Positions 4,909-58,656 of a stretch of 64,000 bases of DNA are shown piece after piece (position 1 is the first letter of the stretch; each line of letters opens with the position of its first letter). Position numbers and translations under genes: made by a program. The DNA is taken from positions 1,369,471-1,433,470 of the forward strand of contig OY970386.1 of NCBI GenBank assembly GCA_963719465.1. Direction: 5' to 3'. A model generated the notes under the pieces. That model was not told the DNA's origin and made no database searches. It was given only the letters and a program-made list of their open reading frames with translations. The stretch is from an uncultured Chloroflexia bacterium. Its GTDB lineage: Bacteria; Chloroflexota; Dehalococcoidia; DSTF01; JALHUB01.

Positions 4909-5433
4909 ATGCGCCTGAGCCAGGAGGGCGCTTTGGACGAGGAAGAGGGATCTCTGTCCGAGTACCGCGAGAGACTGGTCCCCACGGGGTCGCTCCGTAT
5001 TCTTCTGCTGGTACTGGCGGTCTGGGACTTCCTCGGCGGCGGCATCCAGCTTGCTCTGCACAGCTTCCTCGTGTCGATGAAGGACGGCGCGCCAAACGGG
5101 ATCATGGCGGGCAGGGCCTTCAGCGGCGCGCTCTTCATAACGGGCCTTCTCTACCTTTTCGCGGCGTTTCAACCGACGCGGTATCGCTTCATCCTCTGGC
5201 TGGCGGTCGCCGAGCAGCTGGTCGCCATCTGCACCGGCGTCTTTCATGGCGCGCGCGGCAACGTCTCCTGGGGCGGCGTGATCCTGCCGGTCGCCGTCGC
5301 GATTGCGCTGCTGATCCTGCTGCTGCTGAACTTCCCGCGCGGCCTGCCGGAGCCGGAAGAAGAGGAAGTCGGGGAAGAGGCGCTGCCGCCGGGAACAACT
5401 TCAGCGCCCGAGCCGCCGCCCGTCAAGCAATAG
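4909..5433 (+). CDS. hypothetical integral membrane protein with an acidic/Pro-rich tail
   Basis: 174 aa with 4 predicted TM helices; the 3' end overlaps the convergent glycerate kinase gene by about 30 nt, so the true start may be internal. Confidence 0.5.
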   Translation: MRLSQEGALDEEEGSLSEYRERLVPTGSLRILLLVLAVWDFLGGGIQLALHSFLVSMKDGAPNGIMAGRAFSGALFITGLLYLFAAFQPTRYRFILWLAVAEQLVAICTGVFHGARGNVSWGGVILPVAVAIALLILLLLNFPRGLPEPEEEEVGEEALPPGTTSAPEPPPVKQ

Positions 5434-6540
5434 CCGGGTCGCGCGCTCCGCCGTCGCCGAAAGCAGCTCGGCCGCCTTCGCTATGGCCTCCTCTTTCGTC
5501 ATCGGGCCGATCGCTATGGGAATCGCGGCGTCGAGGCCGAGCGCGGTCGGGTCCGCGTCGTCGGCAACGCTGCCGGCAAAGGCGATGACGGGTCGCTTGC
5601 GCTCCCGGGCCATTCGCGCGACGACGGCGACCGCTTTGCCGTAGGCGGTCTGGGAATCGAGGCGCCCCTCGCCGGTGAAGACGACGTCCGCTCGCTCGAT
5701 TCGATTCGCCAGAGATATCGCCTCCCCGACGTACTCCCCGCCGGAGATGATGCGCGCCCCCAGGAAAGCGACGAGGCCCGCGCCCAGGCCGCCCGCCGCG
5801 CCCGCCCCGTCGACTTGGGCGACGTCGATGCCCAAGTCGCGGCGAATGACGGCGGCGTAGTTCTCCAGCGCCGCTTCCAGCCCCGCGACGGCTTCGGGCG
5901 TGCCGCCTTTCTGCGGTCCGTAGACGAGACTGGCGCCGGCGGGGCCGAGAAGCGGGTTGATGGCGTCAGCGGCAACCGTCACTTGGCACGAACGGAGACG
6001 CGGATCCAGGCCGGAAACGTCGATTCGACGGAGCACGGCCAGGGCCGCGCCGCCGGGCTCGAGGTCGCGGCCATCGGCGTCGAGCAAACGAGCGCCCAAC
6101 GCCTGGGCTATGCCGGCGCCGCCGTCGTTCGTCGCGCTGCCGCCGATGGCGAGGACGAGGCGTCGGCTGTCCCGGTCGAGAGCGGCGCGAACGAGCTCGC
6201 CGACGCCTCGGGTCGTCGTCAGGCGCGGATCGCGCTCTTCGGGGCGCAGCAACGCCAGACCGTTCGCCTCCGCCGCCTCGATAAGCGCGGTGCTGTCACC
6301 GAGCAACGCCCAGACAGCCTCGCGGGGGCGTCCCAGCGGGTCGGATACGGCGGCCTTCATTCGCTCGCCCGTTATCGACGAGAGGACGGCGTCGATTGTG
6401 CCCGGACCGCCGTCGGCCATCGGCGCGAGGTCGACTTCGGCGGTCGGGTCGGCGCGTCGGGCGCCGCGGGCGATGGCGTCGGCGGCCTGGCGAGCGGTGA
6501 GGCTCTCCTTGAACTCCTGGGGACAGACAAGAATGCGCAT
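5401..6540 (-). CDS. glycerate kinase
   Basis: 379 aa, GlxK/GarK family (MRILVCPQEFKESLTA..., GGSATNDGGAG, GAGAAGGLG). Confidence 0.85.
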   Translation of the reverse strand: MRILVCPQEFKESLTARQAADAIARGARRADPTAEVDLAPMADGGPGTIDAVLSSITGERMKAAVSDPLGRPREAVWALLGDSTALIEAAEANGLALLRPEERDPRLTTTRGVGELVRAALDRDSRRLVLAIGGSATNDGGAGIAQALGARLLDADGRDLEPGGAALAVLRRIDVSGLDPRLRSCQVTVAADAINPLLGPAGASLVYGPQKGGTPEAVAGLEAALENYAAVIRRDLGIDVAQVDGAGAAGGLGAGLVAFLGARIISGGEYVGEAISLANRIERADVVFTGEGRLDSQTAYGKAVAVVARMARERKRPVIAFAGSVADDADPTALGLDAAIPIAIGPMTKEEAIAKAAELLSATAERATRLLLDGRRLGR

Positions 6541-50849: not shown

Positions 50850-51296
50850 TTATTCCTGTTGGGGAAGAGGCCTCCTCATGAAACGGACGGCCCGTCCGTA
50901 GCCGTCGCACTCGACGTCAGCAAGCGTTGAGTGCTCAATGTCCTCCCAGTCGCCGAGTTTGCTTGTCCATCGACCCGTATTCAGTTGCCGAGCGACATGC
51001 GTTGGGCCATCGTCATTGGCAAAGATAGCGAGCTTTTCGTAGCCGGTCTCAAGTTCGGGACTTGGGCAAAGGACAAAACCCAGAGATTCGAACCCCTCAA
51101 CGACCGCGTCGAGGCTGCCATCTCGCCGAGGCGTGGGCCAGTAGTATTCAGCGAGGCGAGAGTCGGGCCACCACCGAACCTGATCGTCACGAGCCGCCCA
51201 CGCAGCGCAGTTGTAATCAGAGCTCTCTAAGCTCGTGACCGTGTGGTTAGTGGCGTTCAGATTACGGAATGTAGCGCGATGTCGCCACGGCAACAC
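50850..51296 (-). CDS. hypothetical protein (low-GC islet, gene 3 of a 3-gene operon)
   Basis: 148-aa ORF; Trp/Tyr-rich (NCAAWAARDDQVRWWPDSRLAEYYWP); no family recognised. Confidence 0.5.
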   Translation of the reverse strand: MLPWRHRATFRNLNATNHTVTSLESSDYNCAAWAARDDQVRWWPDSRLAEYYWPTPRRDGSLDAVVEGFESLGFVLCPSPELETGYEKLAIFANDDGPTHVARQLNTGRWTSKLGDWEDIEHSTLADVECDGYGRAVRFMRRPLPQQE

Positions 51297-51780
51297 GAGG
51301 GTTCACTCCCGTCGTCAAAGCGTAGCGGTCGGCGTCGACGTAACCATGGTCGCGCCCCCATTTTAGCCAAATGTCCCTTGTCTCACGGGAAGTATGCCGC
51401 ACACCTGGTGGGACCGGAGACTCTCCCGTTATTGCGTGTAGCGCCCAATACCACTGTGCGCCGGTCTGCCGCAGGTCTTCTAGGATAAACGGAACAACGC
51501 TTGGCCCCATGCCGATGATTCGCTGGTATGCCGGATGCATTGCTATCTGCGATGGAGAGGAGAGGTGACCCGTCGCTTCGCGCCACTCTTTCGCGAGTTC
51601 CACGAACCGCTGCCTTGCATCGGCGCGACCGACCGATGAGACAGGCGAAGTAATACGGGACAGCCTCTCAAATAGCGACGTTGGCGCCGATGTTCCCGTG
51701 AGCGGCGGGACATAACAGGGCCGGGGGACTGTTACTGTACCAGCAAACGGCGTTGCAGGTAGGCGATAATCAGTAACCAT
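51262..51780 (-). CDS. hypothetical protein (low-GC islet, gene 2)
   Basis: 172-aa ORF; ATG preceded by GAGGAGAG, 11 nt after the upstream stop; no family recognised. Confidence 0.55.
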   Translation of the reverse strand: MVTDYRLPATPFAGTVTVPRPCYVPPLTGTSAPTSLFERLSRITSPVSSVGRADARQRFVELAKEWREATGHLSSPSQIAMHPAYQRIIGMGPSVVPFILEDLRQTGAQWYWALHAITGESPVPPGVRHTSRETRDIWLKWGRDHGYVDADRYALTTGVNPRVAVATSRYIP

Positions 51781-51791
51781 CGTTCTCTCCT

Positions 51792-52148
51792 CTACGTCTG
51801 TGGTCGTGCCTGCGCTTGCATCTGTGCAATCACGGTTTGTAGTTCGTTAATCCTGTCGGTAAGCCAATCTCTGAGAACGACCGCTGCTCCTGGATTAAGA
51901 ATAACGTCAGCTTCAATCTCTCTGATTATGAATCCAGGATCATCCGTCTGAGTCTCCTGAGGCACGCCCTGCTTGTCCACTGAGATGGTCGTCCCGTCCG
52001 GCAAAGCCCTATGTTCACTGAAAAGTGCCATGTGAATGTTTCCCTGGAACGTCAAGCTACCCCATGCACCGTCAACATGGATAACCCGACAGAGTTTACT
52101 GCGCTTAAATCGGGTCTTTAGTTCTGGTACGTTTTGCGGCTCATTCAT
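51792..52148 (-). CDS. hypothetical protein (low-GC islet, gene 1); tentatively DUF3467-like
   Basis: 118 aa from MNEPQ, with a strong AAGGAG RBS 8 nt upstream; the track start at 52223 is an over-extension. The DUF3467 call is from memory and tentative. Confidence 0.5.
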   Translation of the reverse strand: MNEPQNVPELKTRFKRSKLCRVIHVDGAWGSLTFQGNIHMALFSEHRALPDGTTISVDKQGVPQETQTDDPGFIIREIEADVILNPGAAVVLRDWLTDRINELQTVIAQMQAQARPQT

Positions 52149-52191
52149 ACTTAGTTCTCCTTCAACGGCGACCACGCGTGCGGCGTGGCAG

Positions 52192-52430
52192 TCAAGGCGC
52201 AGCCTCCACCCCGATGAGTTCATTATAGGTTATGCAACGACCAACTACCGACTCTACCACCTTCGACATTCTGTCGCCATCGGAATCCTGCCGAGTGTTA
52301 TATCGGGAAACCTGCTCATCGACATAGCGGATCAAGTGGAAGGGTTCGACGCTGACGTAGGTTCCCTTGAGTGTCCGCTTCATTAGACTCCAGAAGTTCT
52401 CCAGCCCGTTAGTGTGAACCTTGCCGCGAG
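52192..52430 (-). pseudogene. 3'-terminal remnant of an IS1595-family (ISXO2-like) transposase gene
   Basis: Reads ...GKVHTNGLENFWSLMKRTLKGTYVSVEPFHLIRYVDEQVSRYNTRQ..., the conserved C-terminal signature of IS1595 transposases. No DDE core is present upstream, where the methyltransferase gene ends at 52443. Confidence 0.6.
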
Positions 52431-55493: not shown

Positions 55494-56408
55494 ATGCAAT
55501 CCGCGATTATCGTCAAGGGTCTGAGGAAGAGCTACGGCCCGGTTGAGGCCGTGCGCGGCATCGATCTCGATGTCCACGTCGGCGAGATATTCGCCCTGCT
55601 CGGGCCGAACGGCGCCGGCAAGACGACGACGGTGGAGATTCTGGAAGGGTATCGCCGGCGCGATGGCGGCGAGGTGAGCGTGCTGGGCCAGGACCCCGCC
55701 TCGAACGCGCTGGACCTGAAGCGCAGAATCGGGATAGTGCTGCAAAGCACGGGCGTGCAGCCGTACCTGACGGTCGAAGAGAGCATCGAGCTCTTCCGTG
55801 GCTATTACCCGAATCCTCTTCCGCTCGATGACATCATCGAGGCCGTGGGACTGAAGGAGAAACGTAAGTCGCTCGTTCGGCGGATGTCGGGAGGCGAGCA
55901 ACGACGCCTGGATGTCGCGATCGGGCTGGCGGGCAACCCCGAGCTGCTGTTCCTCGACGAGCCGACGACTGGGTTCGATCCGTCCGCCCGACGACACGCC
56001 TGGGAGATGGTGAAGAACCTGGAGTCGCTGGGCAAGACCGTGGTGCTGACGACGCACTATATGGACGAGGCGCAGTTCCTGGCGGAGCGGGTCGCGATCA
56101 TGGTGGACGGGCGAATCGCCGCCGAGGGCGCGCCGGACGCTTTGAGGCGGATGGACGCGACAACGAAGATCAGCTTCCGCCTGCCCGCCGGCGTCGAGCT
56201 GCCGGATGCCATGCGCGCAGAGGCGAAAGTCGAAGCGGGGCTGGTGTCGCTGGAGGCGCTGGAGCCGACGCGGACTCTTCATGCGCTGACCTCGTGGGCG
56301 GTGGAGCAGGGCGTCGAGCTGGAGCAGCTGGCGGTCTCGCGGGCGTCGCTCGAGGACATCTACCTGGAGCTGGCGAAGGGCTCGGAGCAGGAGGGGGCAA
56401 CGGCGTGA
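55494..56408 (+). CDS. ABC transporter ATP-binding protein (ABC-2/DrrA-like exporter ATPase)
   Basis: Walker A GPNGAGKTT, MSGGEQRRL signature. Confidence 0.85.
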   Translation: MQSAIIVKGLRKSYGPVEAVRGIDLDVHVGEIFALLGPNGAGKTTTVEILEGYRRRDGGEVSVLGQDPASNALDLKRRIGIVLQSTGVQPYLTVEESIELFRGYYPNPLPLDDIIEAVGLKEKRKSLVRRMSGGEQRRLDVAIGLAGNPELLFLDEPTTGFDPSARRHAWEMVKNLESLGKTVVLTTHYMDEAQFLAERVAIMVDGRIAAEGAPDALRRMDATTKISFRLPAGVELPDAMRAEAKVEAGLVSLEALEPTRTLHALTSWAVEQGVELEQLAVSRASLEDIYLELAKGSEQEGATA

Positions 56409-57175
56409 ACGCTCTGAGACTGACGCTGCGACAGGTCTACTACGAGAACCGCGCCTTCTGGCGCAATCCGCAGTCGGCGTTTTTCACCTTCGCCTTCCCG
56501 CTGCTGTTCCTGGTCGTGTTCAACTCGATCTTCGGGAGCCACAACGTCGACGAGAGCGGCGGGACGATTAATGGGTCGACGTTCTACGTGCCGGCGATCG
56601 TCGCGGTGGCGGTGATCTTCGGCTGCTACAGCAATCTGGCGATCAGCATCTCGCTGGCGAGGGACCAGGGAGTTCTCAAGCGCGTTCGGGGCACGCCTCT
56701 GCCGGCGGCGGCGTACATCGGCGGGCGGATCGTGCACTCGACGCTGGTGGCGGTGGTGGTGGTTCTGATTGTGCTCGTCGTTGGGCGGGTCGTCTACAAC
56801 GTGCCGATACCAGGCCACACGCTGCCGGCGTTTCTGCTGGCGCTGGTGGTCGGCGCCGCGTGCTTCTGCAGCCTGGGTCTGGCGATCACGACCGTCATCG
56901 GGAACGCGGACGCGGCGAATCCGATTGTCAACGCCTCGGTGCTGCCGCTTCTGTTCATTTCGAACGTGTTTATCCCTCTATCGCCGCCGAAGTGGCTGGA
57001 CGTGATCGCGGAAGTGTTTCCGGTGAAGCACTTCGCGGACGCGTTGCACACGTCGTTCAGTCCGTTCGTGACGGGGTCCGCCTTCCAGTGGGGCGACATG
57101 GCGGTGATGGCCGTGTGGGGAGTAATCGCGGCGCGGATAGCGGTCAGGTTCTTCTCGTGGGAGCCGCGCCGCTAG
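56405..57175 (+). CDS. ABC-2 family transporter permease
   Basis: GTG start overlapping the ATPase stop; 6 TM segments. The track ORF 56294-57175 is over-extended upstream. Confidence 0.75.
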   Translation: MNALRLTLRQVYYENRAFWRNPQSAFFTFAFPLLFLVVFNSIFGSHNVDESGGTINGSTFYVPAIVAVAVIFGCYSNLAISISLARDQGVLKRVRGTPLPAAAYIGGRIVHSTLVAVVVVLIVLVVGRVVYNVPIPGHTLPAFLLALVVGAACFCSLGLAITTVIGNADAANPIVNASVLPLLFISNVFIPLSPPKWLDVIAEVFPVKHFADALHTSFSPFVTGSAFQWGDMAVMAVWGVIAARIAVRFFSWEPRR

Positions 57176-57213
57176 CGGGGGGTCGCGATCCTCCGCTCGG
57201 GGCTCCTGTCATC

Positions 57214-57311
57214 TGGCGGGAGTGGGTGGGAGTCGAACCCACCCGGGACGGCGCAGGCCGCCCCGCAACGATTTTGAAGACCGCGAGACCCACCGGGACC
57301 CATCCACTCCC
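57214..57311 (-). tRNA. selC: tRNA-Sec (selenocysteine, anticodon TCA) candidate
   Basis: Hand-folded 98-nt tRNA: 8-bp acceptor GGGAGTGG/CCACTCCC, 5-bp T-stem with loop TTCGACT, anticodon loop CTTCAAA, long variable arm with a 7-8 bp stem, discriminator G, CCA encoded. The D-stem is G-U rich. Aligns nearly column-for-column with E. coli selC (D-loop CGGT, CTTCAAA and ...GTCCCGG-GTGGG-TTCGACTCC... shared). Confidence 0.65.
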
Positions 57312-57672
57312 GCAGACCAGTATATGAATGCCCTGGGGAGGGGTCAAAAAGAGGCTGACGGCGGGAGTTCGGAGGTGTGAGAGTATGGGTTGACGGCCGG
57401 CGTTTGTCCGCTACAATTGCAGATGGTAGTGGGGACGGCTGAGGCCAAGCTCATCCCCAAGATATGCGCTGCTCGTATCAATACCTGACTGATGGTCCCT
57501 CAGCCGTCTCTGAGAAATCGTAGAGCCGTGAGCAGCGAGCCGGTCAAGTAGAGTACTTTGCAACTCTACATAATCTAACAAGCGGTTGAGCCCCAGCGGC
57601 CGGCTAGGCTTGCGCTTAGGGTCGGGGCAAACGGTTCGGTCTCCGGAAGGTCAAGCTCAGGTTCAAGTCTGA

Positions 57673-57716
57673 AGACCGCGAGAGCCACCGGGACCCATCC
57701 ACTCCCGCAGATTGTT
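57673..57716 (-). repeat. 44-bp direct repeat (1 mismatch) of the selC 5' half plus 4 upstream nt; second copy of 57277-57320
   Basis: TGAAGACCGCGAGA(C/G)CCACCGGGACCCATCCACTCCCGCAGA occurs at both sites; copy B abuts the trxB stop codon. Confidence 0.8.
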
Positions 57717-58656
57717 ACGAAGGCGGCGTCCAGGCGCCGAACTTCTCGCCGATGTACTTGTCGGCGCGAATGGCCGCCGTCGCGCCGTCACCGGCCGAGC
57801 TGACGACCTGACGCGCCGCGCCGCTGCGGACGTCGCCGGCGGCGAAGATGCCGGGGACGCTGGTTTCCATCCACTCGTTGACGATAACGTAGCCGGCCTC
57901 GTCCATGGCGACGACGCCCCGCAGGTAGTCGATATTCGGCTGCTGCCCGATGAAAACGAAGAGGCCTGTGAGCTCGAGAGACGATTCCTCATCGCTTTCG
58001 AAGTTGCGCAGCCTGACGCCGCTTACCATACCATCACCCTGCACTTCAGTGACAACGGTGTTCCAAAGGAAGTCGATCTTGGGCTCGGCGAAGGCGCGCT
58101 CCTGCAGTATGGGCGCGGCGCGCAGCCGGTCGCGACGGTGGATGACGTGGACTTTCGAGGCGTAGCGGCTGAGGAAGACGGCTTCGTCCAGGGCCGCGTC
58201 GCCGCCACCGACGACCGCGACCTCCTGTCCACGGAAGAAGGCGGCGTCGCAGGTCGCGCAGTAGGAGACGCCGCGTCCGATGAGGCGCTCTTCGCCCGCG
58301 ACGCCGAGGCGCTTGTAGCCGGCGCCGCCGGCGGCGATGACGGTTTTCGTGTAGAACTCGCCCTCGCTGGTCTTGACGAGGAAATGGTTGTCCTCGGCGG
58401 GCTCGACGGAATCGGCCATGGCGTAGGTGGCGAGGAGGCCGTATTTTTCGCCTTGCTTGAGCATGGCCTGGGAGAGGTCGTAGCCGTTGATGCCGTCAGG
58501 GAAGCCAGGGTAGTTTTCGACGACGGCGGTGAGGGCGATCTGACCGCCAACGACGCCTTTTTCGAGTAATACAGTGCAGCGGCGGGCGCGGGATGCGTAG
58601 AGGCCTGCCGTCAGGCCGGCGGGCCCGGCGCCTATTATCACAACGTCGCAATCCAT
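57715..58656 (-). CDS. trxB: thioredoxin-disulfide reductase
   Basis: Canonical TrxB from MDCDVVIIGAGPAGL with the redox-active CATC; the track ORF starts 9 codons upstream. Confidence 0.9.
   Translation of the reverse strand: MDCDVVIIGAGPAGLTAGLYASRARRCTVLLEKGVVGGQIALTAVVENYPGFPDGINGYDLSQAMLKQGEKYGLLATYAMADSVEPAEDNHFLVKTSEGEFYTKTVIAAGGAGYKRLGVAGEERLIGRGVSYCATCDAAFFRGQEVAVVGGGDAALDEAVFLSRYASKVHVIHRRDRLRAAPILQERAFAEPKIDFLWNTVVTEVQGDGMVSGVRLRNFESDEESSLELTGLFVFIGQQPNIDYLRGVVAMDEAGYVIVNEWMETSVPGIFAAGDVRSGAARQVVSSAGDGATAAIRADKYIGEKFGAWTPPS

Follow-up and report, generated by a model that had tools for sequence, protein, structure and literature searches.

A direct duplication of the selC 5′ half around a 353-nt orphan insert in an uncultured Chloroflexota bacterium: a possible integration scar

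How did the 5′ half of a tRNA gene come to lie twice, in the same orientation, on one chromosome, with several hundred nucleotides of non-coding DNA between the copies? The question is raised by selC, the gene for tRNA-Sec, in a 64,000-nt stretch of DNA (hereafter the window) from what its closest relatives suggest to be an uncultured lineage of Chloroflexota (a Dehalococcoidia/'Chloroflexia' metagenome-assembled genome, MAG). Read along transcription, the order is trxA, trxB, a 5′ fragment of selC, 353 nt of other sequence and then intact selC, with the gene for an ABC-2 permease converging from the opposite side. A first-pass annotation, made from the letters without database searches, had suggested that the DNA between the copies could be either the decayed remnant of an element integrated at selC or a small structured RNA.

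Intact selC occupies 57214–57311 on the minus strand, with its 5′ end at 57311, the anticodon UCA and an encoded CCA (ARAGORN). The Rfam model RF01852 matches 57218–57311 over its full length with 71.6 bits (gathering score 47), and the two programs agree on one intact tRNA-Sec in the window, on the minus strand. Its sequence is 100% identical to selC of four relatives (L081, L083, L090 and L105; L numbers denote the loci fetched for comparison). A segment of 42 nt, present at 57275–57316 and again at 57670–57711 with one mismatch and a start-to-start spacing of 395, forms a direct repeat. On the minus strand, the copy that belongs to the intact gene consists of the 5 upstream nucleotides TCTGC (57316–57312) and selC nt 1–37 (57311–57275), and the identity block ends on the last anticodon base, inside the anticodon loop. 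A search of the 64-kb window allowing three mismatches returns just these two copies, whereas 100 shuffles yielded none; the 42-nt direct repeat is real and far beyond chance. The duplicated selC 5′ half of the first-pass annotation, single mismatch included, is confirmed, but its dimensions change: 42 nt instead of 44, 5 upstream nucleotides instead of 4, and a spacing of 395 instead of 396.

The displaced copy (57670–57711, minus strand) is a non-functional fragment, TCTGC plus nt 1–37 with G23 replaced by C. The mismatch, C at 57289 versus G at 57684 on the plus strand, falls on tRNA nt 23, where the intact gene has G and the fragment has C; according to the Rfam alignment the change breaks a D-stem pair. 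As had been noted, the fragment lies just past the stop codon of trxB (57715–58656, minus strand; thioredoxin-disulfide reductase, Pfam Pyr_redox_2), the conserved upstream neighbor of selC: it begins 3 nt beyond the TAA at 57717–57715. Its context is the same 8 nt (CAATCTGC) that stands before intact selC in L081. At the junction, an imperfect hairpin (57655–57684, minus strand; GGTC-TTCAG / CTGAG-CTT-GACC) is formed by the fragment end together with the insert's first 21 nt, and it stands where the lost anticodon stem would be.

The end of the block right after the anticodon coincides with the classic site of group I introns in bacterial tRNA genes, which brings to mind an intron-like or split-tRNA arrangement, either as a group I intron lodged in the anticodon loop or as tRNA halves encoded apart. 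We find this scarcely credible. The downstream selC is contiguous and complete, the gene is uninterrupted in all relatives, and models of group I and group II introns give no match at a threshold as loose as E ≤ 10; moreover, the upstream fragment would have to splice past a full duplicate of the 5′ half.

Comparison with relatives gives the polarity of the event. Eighty genome loci were fetched with TrxB, and a search of the protein database led to closer relatives. On the same strand, trxB is followed by selC in 8 of the 80 genome loci as well as in L081–L092 and L105–L109, with gaps of 56–138 nt in the distant L004, L012, L013, L017 and L021. Judged by this distribution, the order trxB then selC is ancestral across Dehalococcoidia-like genomes. 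Empty sites, in which the trxB stop is followed by 8 nt and intact selC with neither repeat nor insert, are found in ten contigs from three related lineages, among them the two nearest to the window. These read trxB-TGA-CATTCTGC-selC in L105–L109 (five contigs obtained from different samples, with TrxB 91% identical; junction at L105:1223–1234), trxB-TAA-CAATCTGC-selC in L081/L082 (TrxB 90%; L081:4940–4951) and trxB-TGA-TAACTTGC-selC in L090–L092 (TrxB 77%; L090:3943–3954). The empty site that the first-pass annotation had proposed to look for is thus present in all three lineages. In a three-way alignment, L081 and L090 show one clean gap of 395 nt relative to the window. By this comparison the window lineage gained 395 nt, made up of 353 unique nt and one copy of the 42-nt block; the empty sites therefore point to a lineage-specific insertion flanked by duplicated target sequence.

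An assembly artefact, in which a chimeric or mis-joined long-read consensus produced the 42-nt duplicate and the filler, is an alternative to be weighed here. The source appears to be a single MAG contig, and exact look-ups of five window proteins retrieved no independent contig with the same junctions. Against this, the filler consists of 353 unique nt rather than of a copy of something nearby, the promoter-like site within it is positioned to the nucleotide relative to selC, the boundaries fall at biologically meaningful tRNA positions, and the two copies differ by a substitution. We therefore hold an artefact to be very unlikely.

The insertion also appears to be young. One substitution separates the 42-nt repeat copies, whereas identity between the window and L081 is only about 87% over the 309 nt up to and including the repeat, which suggests that the insertion is recent when set against the split of the species. 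The likeness of the copies could also be maintained by gene conversion from the intact gene, which is conserved. The five nucleotides before selC are TCTGC in L081 and L105, CTTGC in L090 and CATGC in L001.

The 8-nt gap of the empty-site relatives leaves no room for a promoter, which implies that their tRNA-Sec is made from the trxA-trxB transcript, the only upstream transcription that such a gap would allow. The situation in the window is different. A sigma-70-like promoter, TTGACC-17-TATACT, with 10 of 12 consensus matches, lies on the minus strand at 57319–57347 (read 57347→57319), and its −10 box ends 7 nt before selC +1. The pattern TTTGAC-N16-19-TATACT occurs once in 64 kb, with 0 expected. 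This site, which the first-pass annotation had missed, is predicted to drive intact selC. The locus therefore has its target sequence twice, with an orphan segment between the two copies, and an intact gene that is contiguous with a promoter-like site inside the insert.

A second promoter-like site, TTGACG-16-TACAAT, points the other way (57390–57417, plus strand); a transcript from it would cross the remainder of the insert and be antisense to both the selC fragment and trxB. It had been recognized in the first-pass annotation, but with coordinates 57398–57425. Together they make two promoter-like sites in the 700 nt scanned, versus 0.2 expected. About 10 nt past the predicted plus-strand transcription start begins a perfect 11-bp inverted repeat, GACGGCTGAGG / CCTCAGCCGTC, with arms at 57434–57444 and 57498–57508 and 53 nt between them (57434–57508 overall); the long inverted repeat had been reported earlier, though with arms of 10 bp. 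A 7-bp inverted repeat, GTAGAGT / ACTCTAC with an 8-nt loop, follows at 57548–57569 (arms 57548–57554 and 57563–57569), as described. Direct repeats resembling GGYTGACGGCSGG occur at 57353–57369 and 57388–57404, 35 nt apart, and overlap both divergent promoters. Both arms of the 11-bp inverted repeat (57434 and 57503) contain their GACGGC core as well, which makes four copies in the insert against about one expected. As evidence for arm-type sites this enrichment did not convince us, as 2.5% of windows of equal size reach four copies; the repeats could be operator or arm-type sites, or chance.

As to its content, the insert (57317–57669) is a unique, non-coding orphan that is absent from all relatives. 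The low GC and lack of coding capacity that had been ascribed to it are borne out: its GC is 56.7% versus 64.9% for the window, and it holds no ORF longer than 56 aa. Compared with 5.8 billion proteins, a six-frame concatenated translation gives no hit at E ≤ 10, which speaks against a decayed protein gene such as an integrase remnant. There is no integrase within the interval, nor among the ORFs at 44–64 kb of the window.

The promoter-like plus-strand site followed by two hairpins, together with the fact that no plus-strand ORF of at least 40 aa lies downstream, could suggest that the insert encodes a functional small non-coding RNA or a regulatory leader, for instance a plus-strand RNA antisense to the trxB 3′ end, and that the duplication is incidental. 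We consider this unlikely, and most of what was found speaks against the small structured RNA of the first-pass annotation. The Rfam scan that had been suggested was run, and at E ≤ 10 it matches selC and no other family, which rules out a known RNA family in the insert. On both strands the insert folds with an energy no better than that of shuffles (z = 0.04 and 0.46), which speaks against a stable RNA structure, and no terminator is predicted over it. As no relative has the insert, not even those with 90–91% TrxB identity, there is neither conservation nor covariation to draw on.

Nor did searches at the nucleotide level find relatives of the insert. No other copy exists within the window or the 111 fetched loci; a distant-mode comparison with phage and plasmid collections gave no match, and four exact-pattern scans of IMG/VR and one scan of JGI metagenomes for the junction of fragment and insert returned nothing. 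The search for further copies, which had been proposed earlier for the whole genome, covered the window and these collections and came back empty. A metagenome search for displaced selC 5′ halves, with a pattern ending in a base other than A after UCA, gave 12 matches, all of them chance matches in coding sequence and none a tRNA. We also considered whether the insert is homologous to the region upstream of selC in the relatives with an M28-peptidase gene described below; the best local alignments are marginal (8–102 of 500 shuffles are as good) and the promoter lies outside them, and we make no claim of homology.

Considering the anatomy of the locus as a whole, we suggest, at about even confidence, that a Campbell-type integration at selC, through the 42-bp identity block, left the insert behind as its scar, and that what is left today is a relic without an integrase. 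The ancestral state would be that of the relatives, namely trxB stop, 8 nt and selC, and the trxA-trxB transcript would probably have included selC. A circular DNA that carried the 42-bp block (−5 to +37 of selC) would have recombined with the chromosomal selC, most likely by means of a tyrosine integrase; a single reciprocal crossover between circle and chromosome through a shared block has just this geometry, from which we infer Campbell integration. One copy of the block would stay beside trxB as a dead 5′ fragment, and the second, joined to the 3′ part of the host gene, would make up the intact gene. Integration on the 5′ side would separate the tRNA gene from its upstream transcription, and the inserted end would have to bring a promoter, a need that the TTGACC-17-TATACT site appears to meet. 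Later, nearly the whole element including its recombinase would have been deleted, leaving 353 nt of end sequence; alternatively, the element may always have been miniature and non-autonomous. Such a relic should now be immobile, and its sole predicted present activity is to provide selC with its own promoter. The divergent plus-strand promoter and the hairpins may be leftover regulatory sequence of the element. If the difference at nt 23 reflects heterology between attP and attB rather than a later mutation, the crossover would have occurred 5′ of nt 23 and the working gene would be mostly the host's own. Under integration, attP would be expected to read ..TATACTGG, then TCTGC plus selC nt 1–37, then GACTTGAACC.., and the empty junction to read TAACAATCTGC-selC through AAAATCG.

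Several features argue for integration. The repeat is non-random and directly oriented and, apart from the 5 upstream nucleotides, begins at the 5′ terminus of the tRNA. The promoter-like site, unique in the window, lies exactly where an element would need one, and the insert is non-coding with a GC content below that of the window. Other features argue against it. The interval contains neither an integrase nor any other gene, nothing searched holds a homologue of the 353 nt, and the block reaches 5 nt into the lineage-specific TCTGC, which a local origin explains as well as an att core would. In addition, the downstream flank is not syntenic with that of any relative. The remnant of an integrated element suggested in the first-pass annotation is upheld in its empty sites and its 5′-fragment configuration, but not in any integrase, in homology to phage, plasmid, viral or metagenome sequences, or in another copy. 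Nothing links the insert to a mobile element, and when we infer a decayed remnant we do so from anatomy.

The neighborhood of selC is changeable in other relatives too. In an M28-peptidase type, the peptidase gene lies between trxB and selC; this type comprises L001 (TrxB 88%; 4940–6450), L083/L084 (82%; L083:4940–6468) and L085/L086 (83%; L085:3940–5581), and the short contigs L087–L089 (83–89%) show the same sequence past the trxB stop, with L089 (987–1064) covering only the start of the M28 insert. About 1.5 kb separates trxB and selC in these four related lineages (TrxB 82–89%), and the peptidase gene has its own promoter. In this type selC, too, has a promoter of its own, TTGACG-18-TATACT, about 28 nt upstream. 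The M28 insertion has no flanking repeat and no recognizable selC fragment; a hidden decayed selC fragment or a duplication of the trxB end flanking it was sought in L001 and L083, and the alignments are no better than those of shuffles. Going by these gene orders, the trxB-selC junction exists in at least three states in one genus-level clade: an 8-nt gap, an M28 gene with a new selC promoter, and the 395-nt insertion.

On the other side of selC, the ABC-2 permease gene (56408–57175, plus strand) converges on the selC 3′ end across a 38-nt spacer, and this flank (57176–57213 and leftwards) is not syntenic with any relative. What lies downstream of selC differs between the lineages: the ABC-2 gene in the window, a solute-binding protein in L081 (5049–6139), a GDSL lipase and holA in L105 (1332–4016), holA in L090 (4052–5038), and CMD, PAP2 and TauE genes in L083. 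The ABC operon of the window has a counterpart in L110 (5772–6218), with homology that stops about 11 nt past the permease stop codon. In L110 the operon is not beside selC, and no relative has the ABC-2/selC adjacency in common with the window. By these comparisons the selC 3′ side is a recurrent synteny breakpoint. As the downstream flank is different in every lineage, a second rearrangement seems to have touched the locus, and a more complex single event is possible. An island of the 3′ type to the left of selC was considered and rejected, as no selC 3′ fragment is found elsewhere in the 64 kb.

Such plasticity gives some weight to a history in which no mobile element was ever involved, and which we regard as less likely than integration but as a serious rival to it. 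Foreign or ectopic DNA carrying a promoter and the start of selC would have been captured by homology-facilitated or illegitimate recombination, or a small circle would have entered through the 42-bp homology by a RecA-dependent single crossover; the event may have been part of the rearrangement that altered the flank downstream of selC. This fits the lack of an integrase and of homology to elements in everything searched, and the TCTGC of the repeat, being common to L081 and L105, suggests that the copy that entered had its origin in this lineage or in a sister lineage. The locus itself is prone to rearrangement, with the M28 gene between trxB and selC in L001 and L083–L089 in the absence of repeats, and with a different downstream gene in every lineage and an L110 ABC operon that is not beside selC. 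On the other hand, 42 bp is near the lower limit of length at which homologous recombination is efficient, and illegitimate recombination gives no reason to expect a block that starts at the tRNA terminus and stops in the anticodon loop, together with a promoter 7 nt before +1. Moreover, no donor sequence was found in the window or the fetched loci. We thus return to integration as the reading that we favor, and compare the structure with known systems on that basis.

In tRNA genes, shared blocks of this sort serve as the attP/attB identity segments of elements with a tyrosine integrase, and the anticodon loop is among the places where these usually cross over. Integrative elements normally carry the 3′ part of a tRNA gene, and the islands of enterobacteria, in which selC is a well-known target (LEE, SHI-2, PAI-I), are of this kind: they use the selC 3′ end, extend over tens of kilobases and carry P4-type integrases. 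The target gene is the same here, but it is the 5′ half that is duplicated, the inserted DNA measures a few hundred base pairs, and the host belongs to the Chloroflexota. The use of 5′ fragments is uncommon but documented, as 159 of the 3919 islands in Islander have one (PMC4383910). Islander accepts a 5′ fragment upstream of the intact tDNA and in the same orientation, and counts the anticodon loop among the recognized sublocations of crossover (PMC4383910). The window presents this signature, with an intact tRNA gene and a same-orientation fragment of the same gene on one replicon, the fragment being an end fragment rather than an internal one and placed, as the rule has it, upstream of selC along transcription. 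With the tDNA islands of this class, in which a tyrosine integrase acts by crossover in the anticodon loop, the locus shares the intact tDNA preceded by a direct terminal fragment, a block that ends in the anticodon loop, a regenerated gene and an empty site in relatives. It differs from those catalogued in its size of 395 bp versus at least 2 kb, in having no integrase, cargo or recognizable relative among elements, and in a promoter that would have been supplied by the insert. Repeat, orientation, end fragment and empty site agree with Islander; the length of 395 bp, where 2–200 kb is asked for, and the missing integrase place the locus outside two of its filters, which counts against integration.

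A further likeness is to elements that have lost their recombination genes. CIMEs are derivatives of integrative and conjugative elements (ICEs) that are flanked by att sites and lack an integrase, and they are defined by the cognate ICE integrase that acts on them in trans, as with ICESt1 of Streptococcus thermophilus. Here, too, two att-like direct repeats flank a short segment devoid of recombination genes, as would remain after internal deletion of an integrated element. However, neither a cognate element nor an integrase nor a second copy is found here, whether in the window, the fetched loci, IMG/VR, the JGI metagenomes or the phage and plasmid collections. The most fitting name for the structure is an integration scar that lacks an integrase, or else a CIME-like relic with no known cognate element. 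An IS or MITE does not describe it, as the ends of the insert, CCAGTATATG... and ...GGTTCAAGTC, do not form inverted repeats, the duplicated segment measures 42 bp where a short target-site duplication would be expected, and the insert occurs as a single copy in the window.

If the scar is what we suggest, it would be a clean natural example of the rarer use of a tRNA gene, in which an element replaces the 5′ half and brings its own promoter, and an instance at selC in a poorly studied, uncultured lineage of Chloroflexota. It would represent neither a new mechanism nor a new class of system, the use of a 5′ half in Chloroflexota being a new instance of a known minority pattern. The plasticity of the junction could change how the expression of tRNA-Sec is coupled to the thioredoxin operon. 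One could go further and imagine a miniature, non-autonomous cassette that delivers a promoter, has the selC 5′ half as its att core, is moved in trans by an undiscovered integrase of the Dehalococcoidia and uncouples selC from trxAB, possibly with an antisense RNA against trxB; we mention this as a long shot. For annotation, we point out that the locus contains a pseudo-tRNA fragment and an orphan promoter-bearing segment, which should be flagged.

Elsewhere in the window, a group of three small ORFs occupies 50850–52223 on the minus strand, side by side between the purA gene and one for a methyltransferase. Two of them, of 172 and 143 aa, have no Pfam match, and the other matches DUF7689 (E = 3e-32); the three may form a small accessory cassette.
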